A stretch of DNA of 64,000 bases, taken from the NCBI GenBank assembly GCA_937921305.1, contig CAKZSU010000006.1, forward strand, positions 1,089 to 65,088, in the 5' to 3' direction. Numbering within the stretch: the first letter of the stretch is position 1; every line of letters starts with the position of its first letter. The translations under genes and the position numbers were made by a program. Below, in pieces: positions 7,529-53,357 of this stretch. A model generated the notes under the pieces. That model was not told where the DNA came from, ran no database searches, and was given only the letters and a program-made list of their open reading frames with translations. The DNA comes from an uncultured Patescibacteria group bacterium (GTDB lineage Bacteria > Patescibacteriota > Microgenomatia > UBA10105 > UBA927).

Positions 7529-8771
7529 ATCGGTAGTATAGCAAAAGAACAAGGGTAAGAATTCCTGAAACAAACGATATGCTAACAATCACTTCATAGA
7601 GCGACGCATGAAAAAATAAAATGACAACAGAATGCACTATGCTTCCTATAAAAACAAGAAATCCAGCAATCGTTTTATTGATCGCAAGACAAACTGTCAT
7701 TAAATAATTCAGCATGGTAACAAACGCCATAAAGACGCCATATTGACTAATATATTGATTTGCATTCATAAACGCTTCCCCAAATAGGATTCGTATAACA
7801 AACTCTCCGAGAAACATATACATCCCAACAATTGCTGATGAAAGAATCGCAACAGAAAACAAACCAAAGTAAAACAAACTCGCGTATGGAATGCTCTTTT
7901 CCTTTCGTTCAGCAATCATTGGAAAAACAACAATAACGATTGGCGAAGCAGCAAAAAAAATAATTTTGCCAAATATCGTCAACGACGCGTAAATACCAGC
8001 TTCGGTCGCATCAAAAAAATGCTTTACCCAAATCACATCCATATTAAAAAACGCTGTCATGCCGAGCGTTGAAAACAATACGGGCACCGCGAATGAAAAA
8101 ACAGTTGAGAATTTTATCTGTATCCGTTCAGCTGGTTTCGCGAAAAGAAAACGAACGGAAAGCGCGTAAAATACTATGGCAATATATTCAGACATTGCGT
8201 TTCCAAGGATTGTAAGAGGAACGCTGATTGGCGCAAACGCTATACCGGAGAGCAATCGAAGAAATGTCAAAATAGACATATTCAAACTCGACAAAAAAAA
8301 TCGTTGATATCCATTTAATAAAGAAGAAAATACCGCGATCCCAAACGAGCCAACAACAGTAATATATAAATAAATAAAACTATCAAATCGATAGATGTGC
8401 GTTAAGCGCTGAAGAAACGGAAGGAAAAATAAAAATATAGGAAATGCAAGCAATGAAAGACCGATAATCCATCGCATGGTTTTTACAAATAACGAACGAG
8501 CCTCTCCAATATGATCTCTTGCTTTATAGATAGAAAAATACTTTGTTAACACGATTTGAAGAACATTCGCGGGAACGCTAAATAAAAAGAGAAAAGAAAT
8601 AAGTGTGGCAAATTCGCCATATTGTTCCGGACCAAAAATTCTTATAACAACAAGCTGATAAAGATATGCTCCAAAATTTATAATCATTGTTCCAAAAAAC
8701 ATAATGAAACTATTTCGGGCTGCTGGATTACGAAAGAGATGAAGAACGTTTTTGAAGATCATATTAATCAA
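7509..8771 (-). CDS. Wzx-like oligo/polysaccharide flippase (MOP superfamily, polysaccharide biosynthesis protein)
   Basis: 420 aa with about 12 TM helices. The N-terminus has an NxLxxFxxNPAxRNSFIMFFGTMIINFGAYLYQLVV pattern typical of Wzx/PST-family transporters. Confidence 0.6.
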   Translation of the reverse strand: MINMIFKNVLHLFRNPAARNSFIMFFGTMIINFGAYLYQLVVIRIFGPEQYGEFATLISFLFLFSVPANVLQIVLTKYFSIYKARDHIGEARSLFVKTMRWIIGLSLLAFPIFLFFLPFLQRLTHIYRFDSFIYLYITVVGSFGIAVFSSLLNGYQRFFLSSLNMSILTFLRLLSGIAFAPISVPLTILGNAMSEYIAIVFYALSVRFLFAKPAERIQIKFSTVFSFAVPVLFSTLGMTAFFNMDVIWVKHFFDATEAGIYASLTIFGKIIFFAASPIVIVVFPMIAERKEKSIPYASLFYFGLFSVAILSSAIVGMYMFLGEFVIRILFGEAFMNANQYISQYGVFMAFVTMLNYLMTVCLAINKTIAGFLVFIGSIVHSVVILFFHASLYEVIVSISFVSGILTLVLLLYYRYGKSFQ

Positions 8772-9450
8772 TAAATCGATATTTTATTAATGTCCATACG
8801 GCGCTAACCCCATCCCTCCATGTTAACTTTTTTCCTTCTTCAAATTTTCTTCCCAAATATGAAATAGGAACTTCATAAATTTGATATCCTCTTTTCAAGA
8901 GCTTTGCCGTAACTTCTGGCTCAAAATCAAATCGTCTCGCTCGAAGACGAAGATCTTTGATGACTTCTCTTCTAAATAACTTGTATCCTGTTTCCATATC
9001 GGTGATATTCGAGTTGTATATAACATTTGTGAGAAATGTGACAAATTTATTCCCTATCGTGTAAAGAAACATCGTTGAAAGATGAGATCCTAAAAATCTA
9101 GATCCATAAACAACATGAACGCGGGGATTATTGAATGGTTTCAACAATTGTTCATAGTCATCCGGCGTATATTCAAAGTCAGCGTCTTGAATCAACAAAA
9201 TATCTCCTGTCGCTTTTTTAAATCCTCTACAGACAGCGTATCCTTTTCCGTAATTTCTATCCAAAAAAATAATCCTGTGCTTTTTTACATATTTTTGCAA
9301 TACATCTCTCGTGCCATCGGTCGAACCATCATCGATGATGATAAGTTCTTTTCTCCAACCCGGAATATGTTTTTTTGAAACAACCTCGAGCACGAGATCA
9401 ATCATCGATCGTTCGTTATATACCGGAATAATAATCGAAACCTTTTTCAT
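8764..9450 (-). CDS. GT2 polyprenyl-phosphate sugar synthase (dolichyl-phosphate mannosyltransferase-like)
   Basis: 228 aa. VSIIIPVYNERSMI...LIIIDDGSTDGTRDVL...GKGYAVCRGF...LIQDADFEYTPDDY. This is the classic DPM1/GtrB-like architecture. Confidence 0.75.
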   Translation of the reverse strand: MKKVSIIIPVYNERSMIDLVLEVVSKKHIPGWRKELIIIDDGSTDGTRDVLQKYVKKHRIIFLDRNYGKGYAVCRGFKKATGDILLIQDADFEYTPDDYEQLLKPFNNPRVHVVYGSRFLGSHLSTMFLYTIGNKFVTFLTNVIYNSNITDMETGYKLFRREVIKDLRLRARRFDFEPEVTAKLLKRGYQIYEVPISYLGRKFEEGKKLTWRDGVSAVWTLIKYRFID

Positions 9451-10454
9451 ATAACGCTGTTATACACTGTTGTTGTTTCATCGACAACACGTCTCCATGT
9501 AAACTGTTTTACCCATGATAACGCCTTCTTTCCTTCTTTTTCTTTATCTTTTTGAAGAGCGATTCTAATCCCGCGAACGACATCTTCAATACTCCACGGA
9601 TTCACAAGAACTGATGGTCCGGCAATCTCCACAGGACTTGAAACATTTGACACAACACATGGTGTTCCACACGCCATAGATTCAACAATTGGAAATCCAA
9701 ATCCCTCGGCGTAAGAAAGACACAATGTTAGTCTTGCGAAAGAGTATATACTCTTCAATTCATCCGTTTCAACAAAACCCAATGTTATAATTTTTTTCTT
9801 CAACCCTTCTTTGTCGATAATTCTTTCTATTTCTTGTACTTCTTGTATCGATACATTTAAAAATGCTTTGCCAACAAGCACAAGCGGGATATCAATGTTT
9901 CTCATTGCGCGAAGCATGGTGGGAATATTTTTATTCCAATTGACATCACCAACATATAACAAATATTCATCAGGGAGACGATATTTTTTCTTAACCGATC
10001 GATCGTATGTCGGAGTAAATGAAGGATCCGGCGCGATAGGTACAACATGAACATTCGCATCAGGAACATGGACGATCCGAACGATATCGTTCTTTGACGC
10101 AAATGAATCAGTAATAATGGCTGAAACGCGTTGAAGTTTCCATTTTTGTATTCGCCATGCAATCGATCCTCGGATACCCGCAGGAAAGTGTTTTGGGTAT
10201 ACCAATGGAATAAGATCGTGAACCGTAACCACAACTGGTTTGTTTTTTATAAACGGCATCGTGAAAAAAAACGGATCGAAAAACGGATAGTGAATACAAT
10301 CAATATCTGGAAGATCGCGGAATGAAAGAAATTGATAATAGATATTGTTTTTATCAAACAAAGAAAACGCTTGAAGAAGAAGACGAAGATATGTCCCAGA
10401 TCCTCTCGCGGCATGAGCGTTACGAAGCGGCAAGATATTTATTCCGACGCGCAT
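9447..10454 (-). CDS. Glycosyltransferase family 4
   Basis: ...YAEGFGFPIVESMACGTPCVVS... E-x7-E motif. The likely start is MRVGINILPL, a typical GT4 start. Confidence 0.75.
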   Translation of the reverse strand: MRVGINILPLRNAHAARGSGTYLRLLLQAFSLFDKNNIYYQFLSFRDLPDIDCIHYPFFDPFFFTMPFIKNKPVVVTVHDLIPLVYPKHFPAGIRGSIAWRIQKWKLQRVSAIITDSFASKNDIVRIVHVPDANVHVVPIAPDPSFTPTYDRSVKKKYRLPDEYLLYVGDVNWNKNIPTMLRAMRNIDIPLVLVGKAFLNVSIQEVQEIERIIDKEGLKKKIITLGFVETDELKSIYSFARLTLCLSYAEGFGFPIVESMACGTPCVVSNVSSPVEIAGPSVLVNPWSIEDVVRGIRIALQKDKEKEGKKALSWVKQFTWRRVVDETTTVYNSVI

Positions 10455-12045
10455 AGAAATAACGAAAAACGACAAAATTAATCATCAACGACAATGTAAT
10501 CAGAGACAGCGCATTTGCGCTCCTTCTTGTTTGCGTTTCTTCAAATATAGCTTCTACATTATACACGCCCCGTTCTGGAAGATTAATATCAATGACTCCG
10601 CGAGAATAATCGACAGGAATTTCCCGACCATTTGCTATTATTCGCCATCCCGGATAGTATGTTCTATGAATACGAAGGGATGTTTCTTGATTTGTTTCAA
10701 CAGAAAAAGACACAGATATGGATGTTTCTTGAACATTACGTATCTTCCCTCCTCCGCTGACAACGCTTGTATATCGCTCGCGAATCCACGGCGTCCAAAT
10801 AGTTGAAAAACTATTTCCAAGAGACGATGTTCCATCGGTGAATGAAGGATTATTCAGATAATACGAATCTTCTCTTGGTTCATAGGCAACAGGTCTCATA
10901 TAAGAAAAAGAAAGGACTATTGCTATTCCTCCAAAGAGGATAAGAGAGGTAATCCGACGAACAAAAAACGCGCCAAGAAATGGAATCGTTATCAGCAAAA
11001 TTGACAACAAACGCCATGGATATTGAATAAATTGAAGAAAGGAGATAATTCTCCAAATAAAATCTGACATTGGCAAAAGAAAGAATATTCCAATAAAGGA
11101 AAAAACAAAAAAAACTAGTCGAATCGGTGAATGTTGTTTCCATAAAAAAATAAAAGAAACTAGCAAAATAACCAATGGAACAATACCAATCTGCTGAGAA
11201 ATTTCTCCAGCAATAATACCTGGTTGAGAAAAATTTGTTCCCCATGATGGAAAGAGCAATTGCGTAATATGAGGAAAGTGATCGCTATAGGTGACGGTAT
11301 TCAACCCAATCACATACTGTCTTTCAAACAAAGCGGGAATCCAAAAATATGCACTTAGACCTATTCCTCCAATCAAAGAAATGAACGCATTTCGATAAAA
11401 CAACTCCGTAAATATAGTCAAAAATGGAATCATAATCATCGCCATGATATTGTGACTTACAATAATCAAAGCGATGCATAAAGAAAAAAGAATTACCCTT
11501 CTCCATACGATACTGGCTAATGCGCACCATGTCCACGCAATCGCCCACAACTCGCCAATAGATCCTCGAACATACACATCAACATAGAGATATGGAACAG
11601 AAAAAAACAACACAACCCCAAAGACTGATGAAATAACAGAATAATATCTTCTTAAGAAGATATAACAACCAATCATCGCAACAAAAAGACTCATGCCGAG
11701 ACTATACTGAAATGATTGAACAAGAGGAAATCCTAGCAGAAAAAATAATGAACCGACATAATTAGGAAATGGATAATGAAAAATAAATAAAGGAAATCCA
11801 TAACCGCTGTTTAATCCCGGAGCCCATCGAGGAAATATATGTCCCTCTCTCAACATTTTGGAAAATTCATAGATTCGAATTAAATGATATTCACCGTCAT
11901 GCGTTGGAATAAAACGATTCCCAAATAACGGAAATGCGGCGAACAACCAAAGAAAAAGGAGTATGCCAATCCCTACCGCTTCTTTTTTGTAACGATGTAT
12001 CGTCTCCATAATATTAAAGACATAAGCATTACAAGAGGAAGCCAC
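10420..12045 (-). CDS. Family-B GT-C-like membrane protein (uncharacterised HDG/PRW/GYG family with a YfhO-like C-terminal domain)
   Basis: THDGEYHLIRIYEFSKMLREGHIFPRWAPGLNSGYGFPLFIFHYPFPNY straight after TM1, followed by about 11 TM helices. The C-terminus has ...YYPGWRIIANGREIPVDYSRGVIDINLPERGVYNVEAIFEET. Confidence 0.55.
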   Translation of the reverse strand: MASSCNAYVFNIMETIHRYKKEAVGIGILLFLWLFAAFPLFGNRFIPTHDGEYHLIRIYEFSKMLREGHIFPRWAPGLNSGYGFPLFIFHYPFPNYVGSLFFLLGFPLVQSFQYSLGMSLFVAMIGCYIFLRRYYSVISSVFGVVLFFSVPYLYVDVYVRGSIGELWAIAWTWCALASIVWRRVILFSLCIALIIVSHNIMAMIMIPFLTIFTELFYRNAFISLIGGIGLSAYFWIPALFERQYVIGLNTVTYSDHFPHITQLLFPSWGTNFSQPGIIAGEISQQIGIVPLVILLVSFIFLWKQHSPIRLVFFVFSFIGIFFLLPMSDFIWRIISFLQFIQYPWRLLSILLITIPFLGAFFVRRITSLILFGGIAIVLSFSYMRPVAYEPREDSYYLNNPSFTDGTSSLGNSFSTIWTPWIRERYTSVVSGGGKIRNVQETSISVSFSVETNQETSLRIHRTYYPGWRIIANGREIPVDYSRGVIDINLPERGVYNVEAIFEETQTRRSANALSLITLSLMINFVVFRYFYARRNKYLAAS

Positions 12046-13067
12046 GTCACGGCTGTCCGAATGATCTGATTATATCCTTCATATTGTCTCGTCACGATAT
12101 AAGGAAGATTTCTTAATAGCAATCCAAAGCACAACGAAAAAGAAAACATATACAACAGACGATGAGATGTATATGGCAATAACACTAAGAATGACAAACA
12201 CCAAACAAAATACCACGGATACATTTCCTCTCGAAATGGAGAAATCATAAATATCACAAACATGAACCAATACGCCTGCGCAAACGATCTTGAAAATACA
12301 AGAAGTATCGTCGCCCCCTTTACGAGAACAGATAAACACCACAAAGCAAACTTAAAACGAGGTATCAGCAACGCCAATACAGCAAACGTCATCATCACCA
12401 TATCGTTGTGCCCTTCGTTTAATACAGTAATCAACACTAATGGATTCAAAGCAAACGCGGTGACATTCCATACGCTTTTTGTTACTCGCCACACAATATA
12501 CAAAAAGAAGAAGAAAAATGCAGCGACAAACCCTTTGAACGCGATAATTGCCACCCACACATGATTCATGCTCACAAGATGAGGAATAACCGTCAACGCA
12601 ATCCATGTCGGACCATAAAGCGCTGTTTTATTTGCGGCTCGAGTAAATGCAAGATTCGGTTCGTTTGGAATCTCAATCGGTCGAACTAACCACGGATTTT
12701 CCGTGTAAGTATAGACAACTTTCGATGTCAATATGTAATTGAATATGTCATACGAAAACGCCGGAAAAGAAAATAAAAATATCGCGCTAACAATCACGAT
12801 TATTTTTTTTATTTCAAAAAAAGTTAACCGTTGATGATGAACTAAATGAAGTGTCACCCCGTAAAACCCCCACAAGGAAAGCAAAAATACCACATACATC
12901 ATTCCCGCCCATCCTCGCTTCTCAAACACAAAATATTGCAATGGAGCATGTATTGTTTGATAGATTGGATGAGTCGAAAGGACAAGATTTTTGTCAACAA
13001 ACCCATATGAATATATGAGAAACAATAAAGCGATAAAAATATATCCCAGGATGACGAATTGTTTCAT
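11973..13067 (-). CDS. Polytopic membrane protein ('GHND' family, paralog of 48738-49907), possibly a GT-C-like mannosyltransferase
   Basis: 364 aa with about 9 TM helices. It shares the motif ...LNEGHNDMVMMTFAVLALLI... with 48738-49907 (VSGHNDIVMMMFALLSYFL). I cannot confidently assign a family. Confidence 0.4.
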   Translation of the reverse strand: MKQFVILGYIFIALLFLIYSYGFVDKNLVLSTHPIYQTIHAPLQYFVFEKRGWAGMMYVVFLLSLWGFYGVTLHLVHHQRLTFFEIKKIIVIVSAIFLFSFPAFSYDIFNYILTSKVVYTYTENPWLVRPIEIPNEPNLAFTRAANKTALYGPTWIALTVIPHLVSMNHVWVAIIAFKGFVAAFFFFFLYIVWRVTKSVWNVTAFALNPLVLITVLNEGHNDMVMMTFAVLALLIPRFKFALWCLSVLVKGATILLVFSRSFAQAYWFMFVIFMISPFREEMYPWYFVWCLSFLVLLPYTSHRLLYMFSFSLCFGLLLRNLPYIVTRQYEGYNQIIRTAVTWLPLVMLMSLILWRRYIVTKKKR

Positions 13068-13576
13068 TGTCGAATGTGTTTTGCTTCTTCAAGAATAGAT
13101 CGCAAAGATAATAAAATCGGATCCTTTTTTTCATCCTGCCAAACAAATGATTTGGGAAGATAGTCTATCAATTGCTCAATAACTGTTGCATGCGTTACGG
13201 CTTGTTCGCGATGGCGTTTATACAATTCCGTTACATCTTTTCCTTCGCTCTTCGCCGCGTCTATATATCGCTGAATTTCTACCCAATATTGATTGGAACG
13301 CTTAAGAGCGTTTACGGCAAGAATATATTGTTTATATTCAAAAAGCGTTTTTGCTTCAACAAGATACTTATCAGACAATTCAGTGTAGTAATGAACTTTC
13401 GCGATATTTCCCCAATGCCAATAATATTGAAAGGCGTCTAAAATTTTCATGAGTATTCGCAGTTTGTTTCCTGGCATCGGACCTGGATATGGGAGAATAT
13501 ACTCAGCTCTAACAGTAAAACTAACAATGTGCAACATGAAAAGCATCATAACAATGCTTTTTATCACTTTCATCAT
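13064..13576 (-). CDS. Small secreted/exported hypothetical protein
   Basis: 170 aa. The N-terminal hydrophobic segment MMKVIKSIVMMLFMLHIVSFTVRAEY looks like a signal peptide. The rest is predicted helical and charged. It is embedded between a membrane protein and a GT2 gene. Confidence 0.4.
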   Translation of the reverse strand: MMKVIKSIVMMLFMLHIVSFTVRAEYILPYPGPMPGNKLRILMKILDAFQYYWHWGNIAKVHYYTELSDKYLVEAKTLFEYKQYILAVNALKRSNQYWVEIQRYIDAAKSEGKDVTELYKRHREQAVTHATVIEQLIDYLPKSFVWQDEKKDPILLSLRSILEEAKHIRQ

Positions 13577-14325
13577 GGTTCACCTTTCAAATATTTCCAA
13601 TAGGCAATTGGAACATGCAATGCAGAAAACAGTGAAAATAAAAATCCATATATTCCATCAATAAATCCTTTCTTTTGAATAAAAAATACAACGAATATTT
13701 TTATGGGCTGAAGAAAAAAATATGAAAAAAATGCTCTTTTTGAAATCTTTTTTCTTCTCAATTCATCAGCAGTCAACGATGTGTATGTATCAGCTTTTCT
13801 CCAATAATCCGCTATGGTTTCATAAGAATAGTGATAAAGATGATGAGTGAGATATCCAACAGAACCATCAACATCTATCTGCTCGTGAACACTTTTGCAT
13901 GGAAATCTTGCTTTTCCTCTTTTCACAAGTCGAATCACATAATCAGGATACACTCCTGTTTTTCTCATCCAATGTCCCCAAAAGTTATTTTTTCTTGGAA
14001 TAAAAAAACCACAATTCGTTGTTGTGTTGATTACTTCTTGAATTTCATTTTTTAATTCTGGAGAAACAACTTCGTCAGCGTCTAATTGCAAAATCCAATC
14101 AGATCGACAAGAGTCTAACGCTTTTTGCTTATTGATATGAAAAATTGGCGGATTGTCCGCATAAATAATTCTTGCGTTAAATCGTTTTGCTATATCCAAT
14201 GTGCCATCGGTGGATCCTCCATCGACAATCACGATTTCATCTGCAATATCAACAATAGAAGATAAGCATCGCTCTAGATATTTTTCTTCATTATACACAG
14301 CTAACGCGATAGAAAGTTTTTTCAT
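13573..14325 (-). CDS. Glycosyltransferase family 2
   Basis: LSIALAVYNEEKYLERCLSSIVDIADEIVIVDGGSTDGTLDIAKRF...LQLDADEVV. It is a paralog of 40808-41719, with the same C-terminal HEH.VVDG block. Confidence 0.75.
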   Translation of the reverse strand: MKKLSIALAVYNEEKYLERCLSSIVDIADEIVIVDGGSTDGTLDIAKRFNARIIYADNPPIFHINKQKALDSCRSDWILQLDADEVVSPELKNEIQEVINTTTNCGFFIPRKNNFWGHWMRKTGVYPDYVIRLVKRGKARFPCKSVHEQIDVDGSVGYLTHHLYHYSYETIADYWRKADTYTSLTADELRRKKISKRAFFSYFFLQPIKIFVVFFIQKKGFIDGIYGFLFSLFSALHVPIAYWKYLKGEP

Positions 14326-15950
14326 TGTCTCGCTAAAATAAGTAAGGGAAACAATAATATAACGCTTGCCATAGAAACAATCGTTGATATCATCCGAAAC
14401 TTTGTGTCTTGAAAGACAATGCGAATTGCATGCTCACCTTGATCAACCCAAAATGTTATTCTCCCTCTCCATCGAGGATCTTGAAATTCTATATCAGCTC
14501 GTTGATTATTCACAAAGACATTCCATCCCGGAAAATACAGCGTGTTCTCAACCAATCGCGTTCGTTCTTTTGCGATAACATGATACTCTCTCATCGTCGT
14601 TATTCTTCGTTGTTCCTTAATGATCGCGTTTCCTTCAGCGATTTCCATATGAGAAGACGGCTCGAATTCCATAAACCGAACAGACCAAATGGGACTACTT
14701 TCTCCTGTATCTGTTGTGCTTTTGTACACTCCAGTAAAAAATGATTCATCGTATGTTTTATACGCTTTCGGTTTCCACATGTGAGCAGTGGACACAACGG
14801 CAATCACGCACAACAACAATCCAAGTATCGATTGATATCGTTTTCGGACTTGAACAATGACTGAAGCTCCAATAAGACTTCCAATAAATGTCGTCATGAC
14901 AAGTAATCGCCAAGGAAACTGAAATTTTTGCAAAAGAGAAATTTTCTCCCAAATAGGCAACGATGGAGATGTCATGAGGACAAGATATCCACAAAACATC
15001 GCCCATAACCCAAAAATCAATCCTTTCTTTTTTATAAAAATGGTTAAAAAGAAAAGAATAATCATCGGCATGCCAATTTCTTTTGTAAATTCATTCCCGC
15101 CACCATAGTTCCATGGAGAACGGAGAAATGATGCAAATGGAACCATTCGTTGTCCAATTTCTCCTTTTGTCACAATATCTCGCAATGTGTACTTTCCCTC
15201 AAAAAACGCTGGAAATAGAAAAAATGCCGATAGCAAAACACTATACATGCCAAAAAGAAAAACAAAAACCAAAAATCGTTTTTTTTGTTTAGTATGAATC
15301 ATCATGTATAGAACAAAGAACACTATACATGGAATCATCATGATGCTTACAGCATTATGCGACAACAACAATCCAGCGAGAGATAGAGAGAAAAACAATC
15401 CCCACAGAATTTTTCTTTTTTTTCTCGCCAAATCAGCAATTCCCCAAAGAATAAGCGGTAAAAAGATAAACGACACATGCTCTCCTATCGCGCCGCGAAC
15501 ATAAAGGTTTACAAATCTATACGGAGCGAATCCGTACAATATCGCGGCAACAATACCGGGAATAGTTCCCCAGAAATCTTTAACAAACCAATACATCGCA
15601 AGAATGCTTGCAGCATATCCAAAAGCAAACACTAACTTTACGCTATCAACGAGTGAAAATCCTATCGCATGAAAAAAAGAAGCGATGTAAGAAGGCAATG
15701 GATACAGAAACATAAGTACAGGATGACCAAAACCCCAATTCAAGTTATTTCCCCACCGTGGGATGATATTTCCTTCGGATAAAGATTGATAAAAATTCGC
15801 TATTCTTGCGACATGGTCTTGCCCATCATGCGTCACAGGCAATCCCGGAGACAGCAAAGAACGAAGAGGAAACAATGAAAGTATCATCAAAAACAAGGGA
15901 AAGAGCAATCGTTTATTCATAGACATAAAGAATAACCCCCGGCGTTTCAT
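14322..15950 (-). CDS. Family-B GT-C-like membrane protein
   Basis: THDGQDHVARIANFYQSLSEGNIIPRWGNNLNWGFGHPVLMFLYPLPSY. The C-terminus has YFPGWNVFVNNQRADIEFQDPRWRGRITFWVDQGEHAIRIVF. The start is uncertain: the track ORF runs to 15998, and internal Met codons lie at about 15950 and about 15920. Confidence 0.55.
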   Translation of the reverse strand: MKRRGLFFMSMNKRLLFPLFLMILSLFPLRSLLSPGLPVTHDGQDHVARIANFYQSLSEGNIIPRWGNNLNWGFGHPVLMFLYPLPSYIASFFHAIGFSLVDSVKLVFAFGYAASILAMYWFVKDFWGTIPGIVAAILYGFAPYRFVNLYVRGAIGEHVSFIFLPLILWGIADLARKKRKILWGLFFSLSLAGLLLSHNAVSIMMIPCIVFFVLYMMIHTKQKKRFLVFVFLFGMYSVLLSAFFLFPAFFEGKYTLRDIVTKGEIGQRMVPFASFLRSPWNYGGGNEFTKEIGMPMIILFFLTIFIKKKGLIFGLWAMFCGYLVLMTSPSLPIWEKISLLQKFQFPWRLLVMTTFIGSLIGASVIVQVRKRYQSILGLLLCVIAVVSTAHMWKPKAYKTYDESFFTGVYKSTTDTGESSPIWSVRFMEFEPSSHMEIAEGNAIIKEQRRITTMREYHVIAKERTRLVENTLYFPGWNVFVNNQRADIEFQDPRWRGRITFWVDQGEHAIRIVFQDTKFRMISTIVSMASVILLFPLLILARQ

Positions 15951-17559: not shown

Positions 17560-17564
17560 TCAAT

Positions 17565-25864: not shown

Positions 25865-25870
25865 AAAACT

Positions 25871-35848: not shown

Positions 35849-35851
35849 GTG

Positions 35852-39871: not shown

Positions 39872-39881
39872 ACGAGCTTTG

Positions 39882-45559: not shown

Positions 45560-47078
45560 ATCGTTTCGGTATGAAAAATTTATAACCAAGCAATCCGCCG
45601 TAACACAGCATAAAACAGAGAGACGCGCTATTCGCGACAAATCGCGGAATCGTCTCTCGAAACTCGGCAAATATTTCGTGTTCTCCTTTGAGAACAAAAA
45701 AACGAATAAGACCATTTGGATTATCATAGGAGATCTTTTGCGGCAAACCATTGACCAACACACCCCATCCCGGATAATAAATCGAATTAATCTGAAGCAC
45801 GCTATCTTCTTCCGCAATAACGCGAGCTTTGATCGTTTGAGTAGTGGCAACATCAAACACAATCTTCCCTCGTCCTTGCTGAAAAATCATCCGTTTATAG
45901 GATCGCTCTGAGGGAATTTCTCGCACCCATCGCGGCATATATTCTCCTGAAACAGTTGTAGTTGACTCGTTTGTCGCGTAAAATCCTTCTGGATGATTCA
46001 TATACTCAATAAGGCGAAAAAACGAAAGCGCATGAGCGTAAAAAGAAATAATAACCAAAACAATATATAACATCCGAAACCTGTCTCTCAATACATCAAC
46101 TACCAACGCGATGAAATAAGCTGACAAAAAAATTGAAAGAGAAAACATTCGAAATGGAAATTGAAACAATCGAGCAAATGATTCAATTGACCAGACCCAT
46201 TGGGAAAAAGATGTTAATAAAAACAATAGAAAAATATTACTAAAAAAATAAAAAGATATGTACGATTTTTTTAGGAAAAAGATCAATAGCGATGATAATA
46301 GACCAATCGTTGGGAATAGATACGAGAATCGATTATCAAGAAAAAAACTTTGAGGATTTGAAATTATTTTTGAATCAAATATAACGTATCGTTTCTCATA
46401 TAGCGCAGGAAACCAAAAAAATGTCGCCATACCAATACCTAAACAAAATAACAAAATTCCCTTAATATTTCTTCGCAAAGCAAGAAGCAAAAGAAAAAAA
46501 CAACAGAATATCAATGCCACAGAATTATGACTAATAACAAGGAAAAACACCGCAGGAGCGATCAGCATATACCGTTGTCTTTCAATCGCGTACAACACTA
46601 TCGCCGCGAAAGAAAACGCAAGCACCTCGCCGACAGATCCCCGCTCGTAAAGATCAAATAAAAGATAAGGAGAAACAAGATAACTAACGCTGCCAATAAA
46701 CGCTGAAAATGGAGAAACAAATACCCGAAGCCAAAGATAAACAAAGATTCCAGAAATAATAACTGATCCCCCCATAATGATTTTCACAGCGTCAAGAAAA
46801 GAAAAACCAATACCATGAAGCATCGATCCGATGTACAAATATCCTGGATATAAAAAATTTGAAACAGGATATCCATAGCTATTGTTCAACCTTCCTAAAA
46901 ACCGAACAGGAAATTGTCCTTCTCGAAGACTTTGATAAAACGCCGAAAGACGAATAATCATCCAATCGCCATCGTGTGTCACGGGAAATCCCGAATGAAA
47001 CAATGGAATAAGAGAAGCACATGCGGCAAATATGACCGCAACAAGGAACACGATGTGTGTACGATTATGAATATTCAT
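45549..47078 (-). CDS. Family-B GT-C-like membrane protein
   Basis: THDGDWMIIRLSAFYQSLREGQFPVRFLGRLNNSYGYPVSNFLYPGYLY. The C-terminus has YYPGWGVLVNGLPQKISYDNPNGLIRFFVLKGEHEIFAEFRET. Confidence 0.55.
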   Translation of the reverse strand: MNIHNRTHIVFLVAVIFAACASLIPLFHSGFPVTHDGDWMIIRLSAFYQSLREGQFPVRFLGRLNNSYGYPVSNFLYPGYLYIGSMLHGIGFSFLDAVKIIMGGSVIISGIFVYLWLRVFVSPFSAFIGSVSYLVSPYLLFDLYERGSVGEVLAFSFAAIVLYAIERQRYMLIAPAVFFLVISHNSVALIFCCFFLLLLALRRNIKGILLFCLGIGMATFFWFPALYEKRYVIFDSKIISNPQSFFLDNRFSYLFPTIGLLSSLLIFFLKKSYISFYFFSNIFLLFLLTSFSQWVWSIESFARLFQFPFRMFSLSIFLSAYFIALVVDVLRDRFRMLYIVLVIISFYAHALSFFRLIEYMNHPEGFYATNESTTTVSGEYMPRWVREIPSERSYKRMIFQQGRGKIVFDVATTQTIKARVIAEEDSVLQINSIYYPGWGVLVNGLPQKISYDNPNGLIRFFVLKGEHEIFAEFRETIPRFVANSASLCFMLCYGGLLGYKFFIPKRYDR

Positions 47079-48580
47079 GGGAGGAAATGATGGACAATTG
47101 GTTGAGTAACGCGAAATAATCGAAGTTTCACTGTTGGATTTGTTCCCTTCTGATATTCGCCAATCAATTCAAGCGGCCAATCAGGGGGAGCGCCTTGTGT
47201 TTGATTAAGAATAAGATATGTTGGTCTCTTCAACGCAGATTGAACAATCTCTTGAGGCAATACTTCAGGTAATGGCCATATCCCCTTAATCATAACATTT
47301 GGATTGTTTGCCAAATATATTTCTAACGCGTAAGGAAATAATCCAAATGTTCCCTCTGTATACACTGCGATTGCTCCCTTCTTTGCTTCGCCTCTAAGAA
47401 ATTCAAGGGATTCCTTTACGCCGTATCCAGACGGCCAATCATCGATAAACTGTCCTCTGTCCGCGTACGGGATGGGAGCATACATTGGATTTGTAATAAT
47501 CACATATGAAGCCCACACCGAAGGTAAAAAAACAATCAATGAGAAAAAATTTTTATACCAACGAGATCGAAGAACAGAAAAGATATGATAAAACGAATAC
47601 GCGGCAAGAGGAAGAAGCGGCATAGACATAAATAAAATAAATCGAGGATATAACACTTTTCCAAAATATGCCAATCCAATCAATGGAAGAAAATAATATA
47701 AAAATAATAAAATCATACTTTTCTTTCGAAATGCGAGAGAGAAGAGCGCAAGAAACACAATAGGAATCGTCAAATATCCAATCAACCAGTCAAGCAATCC
47801 TCGAAGGTTTCCAAGAAAAAAAGGATAGAGGAAATAAAAATTCCTAAACGGATGAACAAACACAAAATCCTTCTGCGCGATCATATGAAAAAACGGAGAA
47901 AGACGAAGAATACCATATATAAGTTGAGAAATCACAAGTGATACAAACGCCAACCCGACCCAATGAAGCAATCGCTGTTTCCATCGCTTATGATGGAAAT
48001 CAAAAAGAATCAATATGATAGGCAATAGATACAATGCTATAAATCCAGATGTTTTATTCAACATTCCCGCTCCCAACGACATACCCAACAATAACGCGAC
48101 ATCCAATCGACGATACCGAACCAAAAGAATAGAAAAATAGAGACTCCATATCGCCAACGCTGCGGATAACGAATCATATAACGCAAGACGGTCATACGTA
48201 AGCGAAAAAGGAGAAAGTATATACATGAAAGCGACAATAAGAATGATTTTCTTTGAGCGAAAAAGTTCATAAGAAAGCATTACAAGTCCAACCAATGTTA
48301 ATGCTCCTGCAGATACGGAGACTATCCTACCCGCCAAAAGAGGATCGGCAAATAAACGCAAAGAAACCATCATTATCCACGGGAATAATGGCTGTTTTCC
48401 GTCAGTAAGAGAAATGAAGCGCCAATTCGGATCTTGTCCACCTATTTGCGCCCATCGAATGTAGATTGCCTCGTCGGTAAAAATCGGAAGCGCAGTAAGA
48501 TTAATACTTCTTGTCAGAAAATAGAGAAATAATATCCCAAATCCAATCAAAATCATTTTCCATGTCATTAAAAACTTCAT
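47075..48580 (-). CDS. GT-C-fold glycosyltransferase, PMT_2/GT39-like
   Basis: 501 aa. ...ALPIFTDEAIYIRWAQIG... is a DE-loop after TM1, followed by about 11 TM helices and a C-terminal soluble domain. Confidence 0.5.
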   Translation of the reverse strand: MKFLMTWKMILIGFGILFLYFLTRSINLTALPIFTDEAIYIRWAQIGGQDPNWRFISLTDGKQPLFPWIMMVSLRLFADPLLAGRIVSVSAGALTLVGLVMLSYELFRSKKIILIVAFMYILSPFSLTYDRLALYDSLSAALAIWSLYFSILLVRYRRLDVALLLGMSLGAGMLNKTSGFIALYLLPIILILFDFHHKRWKQRLLHWVGLAFVSLVISQLIYGILRLSPFFHMIAQKDFVFVHPFRNFYFLYPFFLGNLRGLLDWLIGYLTIPIVFLALFSLAFRKKSMILLFLYYFLPLIGLAYFGKVLYPRFILFMSMPLLPLAAYSFYHIFSVLRSRWYKNFFSLIVFLPSVWASYVIITNPMYAPIPYADRGQFIDDWPSGYGVKESLEFLRGEAKKGAIAVYTEGTFGLFPYALEIYLANNPNVMIKGIWPLPEVLPQEIVQSALKRPTYLILNQTQGAPPDWPLELIGEYQKGTNPTVKLRLFRVTQPIVHHFLP

Positions 48581-48737: not shown

Positions 48738-49907
48738 CTATGGAAAAAATCTTCTACCATTATTAGCGTAGCTCAAAAACAATACAAACATAACGGAACA
48801 CACTATCAAAGCGACAAATGCATCAAAGAATCGTTGAGGATATATTGCCTGATCACCGATGCCAAAGTATAAAAAAGGAATATACTTAAAAAGAAGAATA
48901 AATCCGACGATACCGATCGTCCAAAATAAACGAGACAGAGGAAGTAACGAAGCAAACGAAAGCATCCATAACCAATACCACGGCAAAAATTCTCTTCTCG
49001 TCAATACCAACAACGACGCAAGAGACATCAATGCAACTGCTTTCTTCGATGACCAACCGATAATAAATAAAGGGAGAAGAATAATAGTCATAAACTTTGT
49101 CGCCACAGACAATGAATAAAAGAGCAACGATGATAAAACATGTCGCTTTAACCACAAAAAATATGAAAGCAACGCAAACATCATCATGACAATGTCATTG
49201 TGTCCACTTACTAATACTTCAATAATCACCAACGGATGAAATGCAAACGAAGCCATCCCGATCAATCGATAAGTATTTTTCGTGATTGTCAGTATCTTGC
49301 CAATCATCCAAATCAAACCGATATATGAACCAATCTGAATAATTTTCATCGTCCACAACAAAAAAAGCATTTTCTCAAAACTCAACAGGTACTGAACTAT
49401 GCTTAAAAAAATCCAGAACGGCGTATACGGACTGTTCACATGCGTCCACCGCATAAATGAAAGCATCGCGTCAATACCTCGAAACGCCAACGGTTTTACT
49501 TCAAATGGGTTAACCCCATACACAAGAATCATCCGTGGATAAAAGATATAATTGAAAATATCGTACGAAAACGCGGCAGAATAAGAACATAAAAGAATAC
49601 CAGCCATGGCGAATACTATACACCACAGATGACGTTCAAAAATCATTCGCTTCCACAACGCAAATAACACACTTCCATACAATCCCATCATGGAAAGTAA
49701 TACCGAGATATATATCCCTGTCGCCAACGGACGTTGATAAAATCCGACATATTGAAATTCTTTCTGAATCGTTTGAACAATCGTTTCTTCAGAAAGCGTT
49801 AAACTCAAATCAATTTGCGTGTAACTGAAAAAAAATAACGCAAGAGCGTTTATAATCGAGAACAATAAAAGAAATAAGAAGACAAATCGTTGACGACGCG
49901 CATTCAT
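48738..49907 (-). CDS. Polytopic membrane protein ('GHND' family, paralog of 11973-13067)
   Basis: 389 aa. It shares ...VSGHNDIVMMMFALLSYFLW... and the overall TM pattern with 11973-13067. Confidence 0.4.
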   Translation of the reverse strand: MNARRQRFVFLFLLLFSIINALALFFFSYTQIDLSLTLSEETIVQTIQKEFQYVGFYQRPLATGIYISVLLSMMGLYGSVLFALWKRMIFERHLWCIVFAMAGILLCSYSAAFSYDIFNYIFYPRMILVYGVNPFEVKPLAFRGIDAMLSFMRWTHVNSPYTPFWIFLSIVQYLLSFEKMLFLLWTMKIIQIGSYIGLIWMIGKILTITKNTYRLIGMASFAFHPLVIIEVLVSGHNDIVMMMFALLSYFLWLKRHVLSSLLFYSLSVATKFMTIILLPLFIIGWSSKKAVALMSLASLLVLTRREFLPWYWLWMLSFASLLPLSRLFWTIGIVGFILLFKYIPFLYFGIGDQAIYPQRFFDAFVALIVCSVMFVLFLSYANNGRRFFP

Positions 49908-49909
49908 GC

Positions 49910-50662
49910 TTATTTATACAACCCTCGCCATGCGTTAAGCCGAATTGCAATAATATCCATAATCCCCTGAAGAGAGTCTTTGATGGGATTGACTCGCCTT
50001 GTCTCAACATAATGCCATTCTACCGGAACTTCCTTTATCTTGTATCCTTTTCTCTTTGCAACAAACAGAATTTCAATATCAAAACCAGCCGTAACCATCG
50101 CGCCGGAGACTTCGTGCCCTTTCCCATATCGCTTTAATGAACGGAATACATCATACGCGACTTCGCGACGAAACGCCTTAAATCCACACTGCGTATCAAT
50201 AATCCCGTGCAATCCAAGAATAATGCTTCGCAACGCCATAAAGCCTCGAGCCATAATCTTTCGTGACAATGGCGCTCCATGACGCTCACCACTTCTTGAG
50301 CCGATAACAACATCGTACCCTTTACCGAAAAATGGAAGCAATTTCCGAATCTCATGAAGCGGCGTTGCCTGATCAAGATCGGAAAATAATACGATATTCC
50401 CTTTTGCCGCAAGCATACCAGTAATAACTGTTGCCGCTTTTCCTTGATGAGGATTAAATATCGCCTGAAATCCTTTGTTTTGATCAACAAAATCGGCAAG
50501 CAACCGTTTTGTCATATCTGTCGATCCATCGTCAACAATAATCACTTCCCATGAAAAGAAAACATGCTGAAGATATCGAACAACCTTATCCAACGTACCT
50601 AATCGTATATTTGTTTCTTCATTGTACGCTGGAATAACAATAGAGATATCACATGGTTTCAT
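49910..50662 (-). CDS. GT2 polyprenyl-phosphate sugar synthase (DPM1-like)
   Basis: ISIVIPAYNEETNI...VIIVDDGSTDMTKRLL...GKAATVITGM...VLFSDLDQATP. Confidence 0.75.
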   Translation of the reverse strand: MKPCDISIVIPAYNEETNIRLGTLDKVVRYLQHVFFSWEVIIVDDGSTDMTKRLLADFVDQNKGFQAIFNPHQGKAATVITGMLAAKGNIVLFSDLDQATPLHEIRKLLPFFGKGYDVVIGSRSGERHGAPLSRKIMARGFMALRSIILGLHGIIDTQCGFKAFRREVAYDVFRSLKRYGKGHEVSGAMVTAGFDIEILFVAKRKGYKIKEVPVEWHYVETRRVNPIKDSLQGIMDIIAIRLNAWRGLYK

Positions 50663-52257
50663 TCTTCTCCTTTGTAATGAACGAGCTTAAATAATTTTAC
50701 TGGAAAGACATCCTTTTCTTCGACAATTTCCGCTCTTCCAAACCCAGCAACCTCCCAGCTAGCATGCCCTAATGGCTGACATGATGGATTTTCACAGATA
50801 ACAATAAGCTGATCGGTCACAGTTGTTCGTTCTGGATCTACGGACGGTTGTTGAATAACAATCGGCGATCTTCCCCATATTTCAAAGAAATATCGATATG
50901 CATGATCGGAGTTTGTCGCCGTGATTAATGCAAAATTAAATGGTTTTCCTTCCGAGAGATCCAACGCCGCCTTCGCGATTCGTTTTGTTTGCTCCAATTG
51001 ATTATTCGGAGGGTACATAAATGGTCTTCCCTGCCAATTATAGTAAAACAGTCCGCCCCATACGAACAAGCCAATCGCAATTCCCGCTTTTGTTTTCATA
51101 AGTTGCCAAAGAACAATGCCCACCGCAATAAACGGAAACGCAAAAAAAATGCCGAAGTAATAATCATAAATACTTCGCTGATAAAATCCAAACGACAAAA
51201 TAGACCATAAAAACCATCCAGATAATAACATTGCTCCCAACCATTGCTTACGCGTCAGTATATTTTGCGAAGATTTCCGAATAAAACGAATACTCATATA
51301 GACCACAACACCAATTGAAATATAGAGCGTCGTACGTATCAATATGACTAAAAGATTGATATACCAATCAGAATATCCATTCCACACTTCATATTGAGGC
51401 ATGCGAAACAACAACCGTCCATAAGAACGAAACGTAACATCATGAACAATCTCGATGAATTTTCCTGGAACAAACACTGTTTCATTTCCTCCCAGAAAAA
51501 AATTGATAAGCGCTGTTGTATTGGGAAACGAATGGCGAAATTCAAACGCCACAAACGGGGAAAGCATAAGAAAAAATCCACAACACCACACCGCAATATG
51601 CTTAAAAAGCGACCTTATTGAAGAAACAATAAGAATCAATAAAGAAAACGCGATGAGTATTGAATATAAATAATGAAATTGGATACCCATCCCAGACACC
51701 ACCCCAATAAAAAAAACAAGGATTGTCTTCTTCTGAACAATGAATCTCCATAAAAGGTAGAGAAGAAGCAAGGAAAAAAAAGGCACAAGGTTAGGATTCC
51801 ACGATGATCGAGCATACGCGATCACCAAGGGAGAAACAGCATATAAACTCGCTCCAACAAGCCCGACAACAGGATGAAACATTGTGCTTCCCACATGAAA
51901 GACTAAATAAATTGTCGCAATTCCGAATAACGCGACCATAATCGCGGGACCAACTGGATCAAGATTCCACAACCAAAGAAACGGCGCCATGAAGTAGTAA
52001 TACAATGGTCCAAGAAAGAATCCGCCGACCGACGCTGTTGGCCCAAGAAAGACCATGTCTCTATCAACGATCATCCGTTTCACAATTAATACATCTCTTC
52101 CTTCATCGCCTAAAAACGTTAAATACTCATGAATACGATGTAATCGAAGATATGCGCCAAGGAGCATAATTATTGTTATGCAAGAAATCAGAAGATGCTT
52201 TAAAGAACTACAATTCATGAGTGTAGTATACCTTACACCAATCTCTTTTTTCTCCAA
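50659..52257 (-). CDS. GT-C-like polytopic membrane protein with a DE motif (ArnT/PMT-like, orphan)
   Basis: 532 aa. ...HEYLTFLGDEGRDVLIVKRMIVDRDMVFLGPTASVGGFFLGPLYYY... after TM1, then about 11 TM helices. Confidence 0.5.
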   Translation of the reverse strand: MEKKEIGVRYTTLMNCSSLKHLLISCITIIMLLGAYLRLHRIHEYLTFLGDEGRDVLIVKRMIVDRDMVFLGPTASVGGFFLGPLYYYFMAPFLWLWNLDPVGPAIMVALFGIATIYLVFHVGSTMFHPVVGLVGASLYAVSPLVIAYARSSWNPNLVPFFSLLLLYLLWRFIVQKKTILVFFIGVVSGMGIQFHYLYSILIAFSLLILIVSSIRSLFKHIAVWCCGFFLMLSPFVAFEFRHSFPNTTALINFFLGGNETVFVPGKFIEIVHDVTFRSYGRLLFRMPQYEVWNGYSDWYINLLVILIRTTLYISIGVVVYMSIRFIRKSSQNILTRKQWLGAMLLSGWFLWSILSFGFYQRSIYDYYFGIFFAFPFIAVGIVLWQLMKTKAGIAIGLFVWGGLFYYNWQGRPFMYPPNNQLEQTKRIAKAALDLSEGKPFNFALITATNSDHAYRYFFEIWGRSPIVIQQPSVDPERTTVTDQLIVICENPSCQPLGHASWEVAGFGRAEIVEEKDVFPVKLFKLVHYKGEE

Positions 52258-53357
52258 ATAACTTTTGAATACATCGCATAGTTATAAAACAACCCTATCC
52301 CAACGCCAATGATGTAGAACAATCGATACCACGAAACGCCAAAGAGATGCGTTCCAATAAACACTGAACTTCCTTGAATGAGGATTGCGCCAAGCGCAGA
52401 AAGATTAAACTGGAAAAATTTTATTAAATACCTTCCGTGCTGAATTTTTCTATCGCGAAATGTCCACGCGTTATTGAAAATAAAATTCGAAATAATCGCA
52501 CATTCAGCGCCAATAACGCTTCCAATACTTGGGTGCAATCCAATAAGATGAACTGCAATCTCCAAAACAATCGTATTGATGATAAATCCAAAACCGCCTA
52601 CAACAAGAAACTTTTTAAAGTTTCCATAACGAAGCCAAATAAGACGCTGACGAAATACATATGCAAACACATCTCTGATATATTCAGACGGAGCTATCTT
52701 CGAATGACCAAATTTTCTATCAACAAATCGTATTGGAATTTCTTTAATTCTTGCTCCTGCTAACACTGCGTTGTGCAAAAACGCGATTTGAAACACATAA
52801 CCGGAATATTTTGCTACCTTTTGTTTATTTAATTCATAATATTTTTTATAAAATGCACGATACCCTCCTGTCCAATCATGCAAATATGAACATCCAAGAC
52901 CAAATCGAACAAACATATTACCAACCACGCTAAATATTTTTCTATGAATGCCCCAATCAGAAGGAATCGCGCCTCCCGGAATATATCTGCTTCCCACAGC
53001 TATATCATATCCATCATCCAATGCTTGAATAAACGAGGGAAGCACTGCTGGATCGTGTGAAAGATCAGCATCCATCTGTACAATAATATCTGCGCCCAGT
53101 TTCTCTACCGCATAGGTCATTCCTCGCAACAACGCCTTCCCTAATCCTTGTTTTTCCCCTATGAGAAGATGAACATCGTTATGCGTCTTCGCGTATTCTT
53201 TTACTGCGTCAGCCGTGCCATCGGGAGATGTATCATCAACCACAAGATAAGAACATGAATGATGAGGAAAAGAGGAGAACGCTTCCCGCGCTTTTTCCAA
53301 CAAAACGAGAATCGTATCCCGCTCATTATATGTGGGGAGAATAAGAACGACATTCAT
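52233..53357 (-). CDS. Bifunctional-architecture GT2 polyprenyl-phosphate sugar synthase fused to a C-terminal GtrA-like 4-TM domain
   Basis: 374 aa. N-terminal VVLILPTYNERDTI...YLVVDDTSPDGTADAVKEY...GLGKALLRGM...IIVQMDADLSHD. The C-terminal approx. 120 aa have four hydrophobic helices (FLVVGGFGFIINTIVLEIAVHLIG...), as in GtrA/Ppm1-type fusions. Confidence 0.7.
   Translation of the reverse strand: MNVVLILPTYNERDTILVLLEKAREAFSSFPHHSCSYLVVDDTSPDGTADAVKEYAKTHNDVHLLIGEKQGLGKALLRGMTYAVEKLGADIIVQMDADLSHDPAVLPSFIQALDDGYDIAVGSRYIPGGAIPSDWGIHRKIFSVVGNMFVRFGLGCSYLHDWTGGYRAFYKKYYELNKQKVAKYSGYVFQIAFLHNAVLAGARIKEIPIRFVDRKFGHSKIAPSEYIRDVFAYVFRQRLIWLRYGNFKKFLVVGGFGFIINTIVLEIAVHLIGLHPSIGSVIGAECAIISNFIFNNAWTFRDRKIQHGRYLIKFFQFNLSALGAILIQGSSVFIGTHLFGVSWYRLFYIIGVGIGLFYNYAMYSKVIWRKKRLV

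Follow-up and report, generated by a model that had tools for sequence, protein, structure and literature searches.

The 64,000 nucleotides of DNA analysed here (the window), from an uncultured bacterium of the Patescibacteria group, consist almost wholly of glycosylation genes on the minus strand, with a single exception at 22065-30838, where the genes lie on the plus strand. Twelve of the genes encode family 2 glycosyltransferases (GT2s). Five of these proteins, which we letter A, B, C, D and E after their open reading frames (ORFs), are placed by sequence homology in the DPMS/GtrB/ArnC clade of GT2, and the seven others are of another type. We consider it likely that the five make monosaccharide donors carried on polyprenyl phosphate (Pol-P), and that these donors are flipped across the membrane and then used by GT-C glycosyltransferases on its outer side. 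This proposal has its computed basis in the domains and folds of the proteins, in their homology and in the conservation of motifs and of synteny, and from these we infer the reaction itself, the identities of the sugars, the roles of the flippases, the pairing of donors with GT-C enzymes and the nature of the acceptor. The pathway type, multi-component transmembrane glycosylation, is a known one; what is new lies in the scale, the host and the variants rather than in the principle.

Five GT2 proteins align with polyprenyl-phosphate sugar synthases

The original prediction for this DNA had taken A, B, C and E for Pol-P-sugar synthases and had named D as a possible further one, a reading that homology and synteny support for all five candidates. 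The five ORFs are all present on the minus strand, at 8764-9450 (A, 228 amino acids [aa]), 43162-43905 (B, 247 aa), 49910-50662 (C, 250 aa), 6722-7528 (D, 268 aa) and 52233-53357 (E, 374 aa). Every one of their products scores above the Pfam gathering threshold for PF00535, the profile that had been proposed as a check (A 120.9, B 86.1, C 87.9, D 93.1 and E 86.8 bits). The GT2 motifs that had been claimed can be read in the translations of A (IPVYNE, DDGSTD and DAD), B (IPVYNE, DNASTD and DVD), C (IPAYNE, DDGSTD and DLD) and E (LPTYNE, DDTSPD and DAD). Pairwise identity among the five proteins is 21-32%.

A sequence search of all PDB chains returned the dolichyl-phosphate mannose synthase of Pyrococcus furiosus (PfDPMS) as the best match for each of the five proteins, with ArnC and GtrB next. 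E matched PfDPMS over its full length with an E-value of 7.6e-37, followed by A (1.7e-18), B (4.7e-17), C (1.5e-13) and D (5.5e-11). A to E, unlike the other seven GT2s, align to DPMS past the nucleotide-binding half: when PfDPMS was compared by phmmer with all 12 GT2s of the window, the alignments of A to D extended to Pf residue 169-207 and that of E to residue 350 (44-128 bits), whereas four of the other seven reached residue 116 at most and three gave no match. The NCBIfam neighbours of the two groups differ in the same manner. Those of A to E are AglJ, PgfS, ArnC, PpgS and a haloarchaeal dolichyl-phosphate (Dol-P) hexose transferase, all of them Pol-P-sugar enzymes, and the other seven have affinity to families of the SunS/TIGR04283 and MftF/rhamnosyltransferase types. 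The matches to PF00535, to PF04138 (in E) and to the MOP flippase profiles described below represent, by their scores, strong homology rather than chance. The label "DPM1-like" that had been given to these proteins would denote shared architecture without transmembrane (TM) segments and homology to archaeal DPMS, and only that.

Residues with known roles in PfDPMS, taken from PMC5526996 and PMC12992685, are retained to different degrees. A, B, C and E all keep E12, D89, D91 and R117 (PfDPMS numbering), and the homologue alignments of the A, B and C families show no variation at these positions. The residues at the positions of R117, R131 and S135 are R/R/S in E and B, R/R/A in C, R/Y/N in A and K/R/S in D. 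Two interface helices (IFH1 and IFH2) of PfDPMS bind dolichyl phosphate (PMC5526996). AlphaFold models, which were made for A (55 homologues) and D (53 homologues) and compared with the PDB by Foldseek, have a GT-A fold with helices at the IFH1 and IFH2 positions, and they superpose on ArnC, DPMS and GtrB over nearly their full length, in alignments of 230-250 columns. A to D contain no TM segments. PfDPMS deprived of its TM domain is still active and membrane-bound (PMC5526996), and A to D are therefore plausible enzymes despite their TM-less form.

E is a bacterial look-alike of type-III DPMS

E joins in one chain a GT2 catalytic domain (PF00535) and a 4-TM domain of the GtrA/DPMS type; the GtrA fusion foreseen for it is confirmed by a PF04138 match at residues 249-368 (71.5 bits, Pfam). 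This fusion is the already known architecture of type-III DPMS, in which, as in E, a single chain carries two interface helices besides its GT-A domain and its 4-TM GtrA-like domain (PfDPMS; PDB 5MLZ, 5MM1 and 9EP0). E and PfDPMS (5mlz) align end to end at 32% identity, and E keeps E12, D39, D89, D91, H94, R117, G122, R131, S135, F177, R202 and K208 of the archaeal enzyme. Within the TM domain, N261, N291 and N359 of E align to the polar-pocket positions N248, N277 and R/N341; asparagine at position 341 is shared with type-III enzymes from outside the Thermococcales (PMC12992685). The two proteins differ at Q93, which is Ser in E, and at K178, which is Gln. The gating residue F338 of PfDPMS aligns to L356 of E, with a Phe (F357) one residue on, and the gate is uncertain. 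The full-length architecture is found in roughly 90 of the best 150 cluster representatives for E, and metagenomes hold many relatives that align with E from end to end.

A 2026 survey recorded strict type-III DPMS in archaea only and called it a hyperthermophile trait (PMC12992685). E falls outside this archaeal range, as its nearest genome matches are in Candidatus Woesebacteria (73%), Gottesmanbacteria (about 60%) and then other Patescibacteria, and the lipid that it uses would presumably be a bacterial polyprenol. By sequence and architecture E is a bacterial look-alike of type-III DPMS, which we do not file as a strict member of the type, and it shows that the architecture is not confined to hyperthermophilic archaea. 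E is very probably a type-III-DPMS-like polyprenyl-phosphate sugar synthase that makes a monosaccharide donor. Type-III DPMS has been proposed to flip its own product (PMC12992685).

E probably uses a GDP-sugar, because the guanine-contacting Asp is kept and an Rmd/GMD-like GDP-sugar enzyme adjoins it. The adjoining gene, directly upstream of E (53391-54350, minus strand), encodes a short-chain dehydrogenase/reductase (SDR; PDB 2pk3, 1.6e-86) that is nearest to GDP-6-deoxy-D-lyxo-4-hexulose reductase (Rmd) and then to GDP-mannose/heptose dehydratases. It adjoins the E orthologue in seven related genomes and, at 75-83% identity, is the most conserved gene of the module. With such a neighbour, an Rmd-like GDP-6-deoxyhexose enzyme, the product of E may not be mannose, which is a further point of difference from type-III DPMS. 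The SDR suggests a GDP-6-deoxyhexose (D-rhamnose-like) branch beside dTDP-rhamnose genes; genes for UDP-glucose 6-dehydrogenase, an RmlD-like protein, RmlB and RmlA lie at 54391-58299 on the minus strand (Pfam, NCBIfam), and no RmlC gene was seen in the window.

C, B and A are putative TM-less donor synthases

The remaining candidates are graded by the evidence that each offers. C is a TM-less DPMS/GtrB/PgfS-like GT2 that matches DPMS, GtrB (7e-13) and ArnC (5e-12) in the PDB and has PgfS as its top NCBIfam match. Its equivalents of E12, D39, D89, D91, R117 and R131 are invariant in 7 orthologues, and its gene overlaps the upstream GT-C gene by 4 nt. C is likely to be a monosaccharide-donor synthase. 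B, a TM-less DPMS-like GT2, matches only DPMS and ArnC in the PDB; 27 homologues show no change in its DVD motif or at its equivalents of R117, R131 and S135, and its gene shares 23 nt with the upstream GT-C gene and 8 nt with the MOP gene downstream. The same function is fairly likely for B, if a shade less so than for C.

A is a TM-less AglJ/ArnC/DPMS-like GT2 (PF00535, 7e-35) that matches ArnC in the PDB (9e-17) next after DPMS. Its top NCBIfam match is AglJ (1.3e-33), which lies below the equivalog cut-off and far ahead of the next matches of A. The AlphaFold model of A (pLDDT 86) has ArnC, DPMS and GtrB as its top Foldseek matches, with TMq values of 0.76-0.80. We lean, with moderate confidence, towards a monosaccharide-donor synthase for A as well.

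D represents a DxGG(D/E) variant

D had been named in the original prediction as what may be another synthase, a caution that suits its motifs, which deviate (IPVFRQE, VDGFVD and DAGGE); its fold is that of a DPMS-like GT2. The reading frame of this atypical protein (PF00535) is open over 6722-7588, and 6722-7528 corresponds to the ATG start of public gene calls. In D, DAGGE replaces the DxD motif and GSKRHP replaces GSR, and both elements, as F(I/L)DxGG(D/E) and GSKRHP, are invariant in 53 homologues. A profile-profile comparison of D with the A family gave a probability of 99.8% and placed a Gly at the metal-binding Asp and an acidic residue at the Q93 position. The AlphaFold model of D (pLDDT 82) has ArnC, DPMS and GtrB as its top Foldseek matches (TMq about 0.7), and PpgS is its top NCBIfam match. 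The family comprises more than 4000 close matches of 260-269 aa, with Patescibacteria among its members, and it also has a conserved C-terminal tail, YYD...W..DPEL. D is clearly under purifying selection, though its chemistry may differ. A monosaccharide-donor function is possible for D, though we regard it as somewhat doubtful.

Synthase, flippase and GT-C genes are kept in order

The two ORFs that had been described as Wzx-like were assigned by homology to the MOP family. The first (MOP1; 41712-43169, minus strand) lies directly downstream of B and matches PF13440 (8e-49), PF01943 and the NCBIfam MOP flippase profile (2e-33); a PDB sequence search with it gave no match. The second (MOP2; 7509-8771, minus strand, with a public gene call that starts at 8762) lies between A and D and matches PF01943 (2.9e-11). 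Through gene overlaps, C and B are translationally coupled to neighbouring GT-C genes, and MOP genes are coupled in this way to B, A and D. GT-C-like genes number 20 in the window, comprising six PTPS/STT3-like, six PMT-like, three YfhO and two MptA_B genes and three singletons.

A first string runs in the order SDR, E, PMT_2 GT-C, C, MptA_B GT-C, PMT_2 GT-C, two family-I GT-Cs, B and MOP1. Its GT-C genes, all on the minus strand, are a PMT_2 gene between E and C (50659-52218; PF13231), an MptA_B-family gene directly downstream of C (48738-49907; PF26314; a paralogue of 11973-13067), a PMT_2/PMT gene (47075-48580; PF13231, 4.7e-12) and two genes of family I, by which we mean paralogues of PTPS_related/STT3-like proteins. 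The first of these two (45549-47078) has no Pfam match and was assigned by its phmmer match to 14322-15998 (5e-55), and the second (43883-45559; PTPS_related, PF10131; a 558-aa gene call) lies directly upstream of B. This string is kept in 7 related genomes with identities of 64-80% for C, 68-70% for B and 59-73% for E, as against 41-69% for the GT-Cs, and the adjacency of B and the MOP gene is kept in three related loci. The pair formed by E and its GT-C is kept down to 46%/44% identity in one distant locus. At distant loci with E homologues, tblastn with the window proteins as queries did not detect GT-C neighbours, which are not detectable by it at that divergence.

The second string, GT4, A, MOP2, D, GT4 and PMT_2, is kept in two further assemblies. 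It is likewise on the minus strand, with one GT4 gene directly upstream of A (9447-10475; PF00534) and another directly downstream of D (5607-6725; PF00534, 9e-43), each of them overlapping its neighbour by 4 nt and conserved in position, and with a PMT_2 GT-C gene at the end of the block (4297-5610; PF13231, 3e-14). Both arrangements are met again in Patescibacteria, among them Woesebacteria and Gottesmanbacteria. Close metagenome homologues number in the thousands for each of A, B and D, Patescibacteria members included, and the match lists of the three share contigs, which suggests that the set travels together. Public records give the families of A, B and D generic glycosyltransferase names only, where they are named, and a cluster look-up found no name in any source for the exact proteins of the window.

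A putative pathway

In the pathway that we propose, A to E would load sugars onto a polyprenyl-phosphate carrier on the membrane's cytoplasmic side. E would pass its product to the adjoining PMT_2 GT-C, and A to D would hold to the membrane peripherally, either through their interface helices or through membrane proteins encoded by overlapping genes (compare DPM1, GacI and PpgS). Passage of the products across the membrane would be served by the TM domain of E itself and by the two MOP proteins beside A, D and B. About 20 GT-Cs (PMT/PMT_2, YfhO, MptA_B, GT87-like and PTPS/STT3-like) would in turn use the donors, and an extracytoplasmic glycan, lipoglycan or glycoprotein would be built or decorated. 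The three-component logic of the original prediction stands to the extent that a synthase, a flippase candidate and a GT-C are co-encoded and conserved in relatives; its wording "periplasmic" does not. The window holds a sortase gene (59554-60123) and DUF5656/DUF5667-type matches, which fit a monoderm-like cell of the candidate phyla radiation (CPR), and "periplasmic" is thus better read as "extracytoplasmic".

The combination of a TM-less GT-A enzyme, a Wzx-type flippase and a PMT_2 GT-C has precedents in GacI/J/K/L (PMC8035078) and AglD/AglR/AglS (PMC3871713). A Wzx-type flippase for a Pol-P-monosaccharide likewise has precedent, if unproven, in GacK (PMC8035078) and AglR (PMC3871713). No free-standing GtrA, SMR-type or GacJ-like gene was found in the window, where the gene space is already assigned.

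Evidence against the proposal, and its alternatives

Several observations weigh against a function of the five proteins in donor synthesis. MOP proteins classically flip oligosaccharides linked to undecaprenyl pyrophosphate (Und-PP), and the conserved block that contains A and D also encodes two cytoplasmic GT4s and a MOP protein. None of the five reaches any NCBIfam equivalog cut-off (AglJ, PgfS, ArnC, PpgS or the haloarchaeal Dol-P hexose transferase); A comes closest, with 116.7 bits against the 325 bits set for AglJ, and all others are further below. With no cut-off reached, none of A to E is an orthologue of a characterised enzyme, and with scores so far under the cut-offs sugar specificity is not transferable. 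D is without the metal-binding second Asp of DxD, and the amphipathicity of the putative interface helices, clear in B and D, is weak in A. Only E and B have the full acceptor-phosphate triad R117/R131/S135; GtrB, however, has no clear counterparts of R131 and S135 (PMC5526996), so that partial conservation of the triad is not decisive. In the Foldseek comparisons of the A and D models, the soluble enzymes GpgS and MpgS rank next after ArnC, DPMS and GtrB, so that fold alone is no proof of a lipid acceptor. Finally, the DPMS-like enzymes AglJ, AglG, AglI and AglE start or extend lipid-linked oligosaccharides (PMC3871713).

The best placed of the alternatives, although an unlikely one, is that part of the set follows a route like that of the archaeal Agl proteins. 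A, and perhaps B, would prime Pol-P with a first hexose, the GT4s and GT2s, D included, would elongate it into a Pol-P-linked oligosaccharide, a MOP protein would flip this oligosaccharide and a GT-C would transfer it en bloc. These GT2s would then start or lengthen the chain instead of making monosaccharide donors for GT-Cs. The strongest curated match of A is indeed AglJ (1.3e-33), which links the first sugar to Dol-P for AglG, AglI and AglE to extend (PMC3871713). The order GT4-A-MOP-D-GT4-PMT_2 is conserved as a unit, B is followed by a MOP gene and then by three non-DPMS GT2s, and the metal site of D is altered. No phosphoglycosyl transferase (PGT) was found in the window and 10 kb on either side (about 84 kb), so that the GT4 and GT2 enzymes of the cytoplasm must be primed by a different lipid-linked compound, and this too would suit an Agl-like route. 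Such a route is opposed by the absence of any oligosaccharyltransferase (OST) of the STT3/AglB/PglB type, the WWDxG motif being absent from all GT-Cs of the window, and by the AglJ score of A, which falls short of the cut-off as described. Moreover, C and E are flanked by GT-Cs only, which fits the supply of monosaccharide donors, and the GT4s might just as well be the priming enzymes of a glycolipid anchor, in the manner of PimA and PimB in the synthesis of mycobacterial phosphatidylinositol mannoside (PIM) and lipomannan (LM). En bloc N-glycosylation of the AglB/PglB type was rejected, since no GT-C carries WWDxG.

That the five proteins are ordinary cytoplasmic GT2s of a Wzx/Wzy pathway, which build an Und-PP-linked repeat unit with a PGT encoded elsewhere and resemble DPMS at the level of the fold only, is very unlikely. 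The presence of two MOP/Wzx genes, and of GT2 and GT4 genes in large number, would suit such a pathway, and the polytopic product of 34142-35848 could be a divergent Wzy. A to E, however, stay in alignment with Pol-P glycosyltransferases across the acceptor half and the interface helices, and the other seven GT2s do not. The direct coupling of their genes to GT-C genes is conserved, and within about 84 kb neither a PGT nor a Wzy_C or ligase domain was found.

A soluble, small-molecule function of the kind found in glucosyl- and mannosyl-3-phosphoglycerate synthases (GpgS and MpgS) is scarcely credible. These enzymes are the next structural matches, yet they rank under all three Pol-P enzymes, the NCBIfam scores for GpgS are low, hydrophobic or amphipathic helices stand at the IFH positions and the operon context is exclusively one of membrane glycosylation genes. 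Processive, polymer-forming synthases such as those of cellulose, chitin or hyaluronan, named in the original prediction as the outcome that would overturn it, share with A to E their GT2 membership only, and we reject this explanation: their best matches are not processive synthases, the Q/RxxRW motif is absent from all 12 GT2s of the window, A to D are of 228-268 aa and no TM channel or pore is present, E having only its 4-TM GtrA-like domain. The synthesis of Pol-P-monosaccharide donors by A to E is thus the explanation that we prefer.

Comparison with known systems

The nearest parallels to the proposed pathway are found in several well-studied systems. In Streptococcus pyogenes, GacI/GacJ/GacK/GacL ("type b"; PMC8035078) combine a TM-less GT-A enzyme, a Wzx-type flippase and a PMT_2 GT-C, as seen here around B and around A and D. 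The Gac system differs in that no GacJ-like partner was found beside A to D and in that five synthases and 20 GT-Cs are present here as against one of each, and its sequence similarity to A to E is at the family level only. The GtrA/GtrB/Gtr*, CsbB/GtcA/YfhO and ArnC/ArnE-F/ArnT systems share the logic of a GT2 Pol-P-sugar synthase, a flippase and a GT-C, and GT-Cs of the YfhO family and of the ArnT-like (PMT_2) kind are present here as in the CsbB/GtcA/YfhO and Arn systems. GtrB, CsbB and ArnC have two C-terminal TM helices, however, whereas A to D have none, and MOP proteins here fill the position of the flippase found in systems of the Gtr and Arn types.

In mycobacteria and corynebacteria, TM-less synthases (Ppm1, PpgS) and the synthesis of LM, lipoarabinomannan (LAM) and arabinogalactan that depends on decaprenylphosphoryl arabinose (DPA) offer the case in which such synthases feed many GT-Cs, MptA/MptB-family and GT87-like enzymes included. 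As in those systems, cytoplasmic GT4s could prime a lipid anchor. They belong to another phylum, and a partner resembling Lnt (Ppm1 D1) or Rv3632 was not seen here. In the Agl system of Haloferax volcanii, AglD is a DPMS-like GT2, AglR is Wzx-like and AglS is Dol-P-Man-dependent, and this triad parallels the GT2, MOP and GT-C genes described here; A, in turn, is nearest AglJ (PMC3871713). The Agl system differs in its archaeal rather than bacterial host and in its AglB-type OST, which has no counterpart here, and A is without the C-terminal extension of AglJ (it covers profile positions 1-216 of 293).

Significance of the locus

CPR/Patescibacteria live attached to hosts and their envelope chemistry is essentially unknown; surface glycans are likely to be central to this way of life. 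A literature search on GT-C or Pol-P-sugar systems in CPR/Patescibacteria gave nothing relevant in the library that it covered. The locus provides a testable parts list in which 20 GT-C transferases and two MOP flippases stand beside five candidate lipid-linked donors, and the fact that TM-less synthases are coupled to MOP genes repeatedly and in a conserved manner offers comparative support for the unproven flipping of Pol-P-monosaccharides by Wzx-type proteins.

A wider reading is tentative and, taken as a whole, rather less likely than not. CPR bacteria of the Microgenomates type may devote about one tenth of a genome of less than about 1 Mb to a conserved, PGT-free envelope line that resembles mycobacterial and archaeal systems. 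In this line five Pol-P donors would feed about 20 GT-Cs, E would be a self-flipping bacterial type-III-DPMS-like enzyme, D would represent a DxGG(D/E) subfamily and MOP/Wzx proteins would serve as dedicated flippases of Pol-P-monosaccharides. Were all of this true, the DxGG(D/E) subfamily would be a previously undescribed one, and these bacteria would assemble their main surface glycan or lipoglycan almost wholly outside the membrane.

Other genes of the locus

The GT-C-like genes that lie outside the two strings stand mostly in runs. Five consecutive genes on the plus strand (22065-30838; Pfam and paralogue clustering) encode a family-I protein (22065-23666), a YfhO-family protein (23651-25864), a PMT_2 protein (25871-27550), a PTPS_related protein (27525-29153) and a PMT protein (29129-30838). 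Five others, consecutive on the minus strand and assigned in the same way (14322-22031), encode a PTPS/YfhO/STT3-like protein (14322-15998), three PMT/PMT_2 proteins (15913-17559, 17565-19193 and 19190-20845) and a GT87/PMT_2 protein (20793-22031). Also on the minus strand are a pair at 10420-13067, of which 10420-12009 belongs to family I (phmmer) and 11973-13067 to the MptA_B family (PF26314), and two YfhO-family genes, at 36858-39161 (PF09586, 6.6e-19) and 31728-33989 (PF09586; paralogue clustering). Several GT-Cs, together with three GT4s, gave generic or sub-threshold matches only in NCBIfam. The ORF at 34142-35848 (minus strand) encodes a highly polytopic protein of 568 aa for which Pfam and NCBIfam gave no match and the window no paralogue; a divergent Wzy-like polymerase and a 21st GT-C are both possible identities.

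Three GT2s of the other type (13573-14325, 39131-39931 and 40808-41719, minus strand) match PF13704, with weak affinity to SunS and TIGR04283. Two of the three have a C-terminal hydrophobic helix, and their genes are interleaved with GT-C and MOP genes. At 58308-58580 (minus strand), between a gene for a CAP-domain protein and rmlA, lies the only small membrane ORF, for a product of about 90 aa that has about 3 TM helices and a weak DUF5656 match; seven related genomes keep it in this position. The product may act as a small membrane partner or be flippase-like, and nothing ties it to GtrA or GacJ.

The glycosylation island continues for at least 10 kb past either end of the window and measures at least 85 kb overall in this reduced-genome bacterium of the Microgenomates type. 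On one side the same 565-kb contig carries three more GT4s, one GT2, a pyruvyl transferase and two polytopic proteins without assignment; on the other it carries a GT2, an acetyltransferase, an SDR, DegT-type aminotransferases and a 743-aa protein without assignment.

Towards one edge of the locus, a gene for a secreted fn3-domain protein (60095-61270, minus strand) overlaps the sortase gene, and homologues of the two stand in the same order in one related genome. The protein has an N-terminal signal or TM segment and, after the residues LGATG, a C-terminal hydrophobic segment with a basic tail. Its Ser/Thr/Pro-rich linker, TPTITPTPLMSPSSLPTPMPTSQSQSSSGS, has Ser or Thr at 15 of 30 residues. 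In these features it resembles a sortase substrate, and it is a candidate acceptor for O-glycosylation by the PMT-like GT-Cs. An apiosidase-like protein (62768-63967, minus strand; PF13204) and the adjoining secreted protein (61462-62775, minus strand), at the edge of the locus, may be glycan-processing hydrolases.

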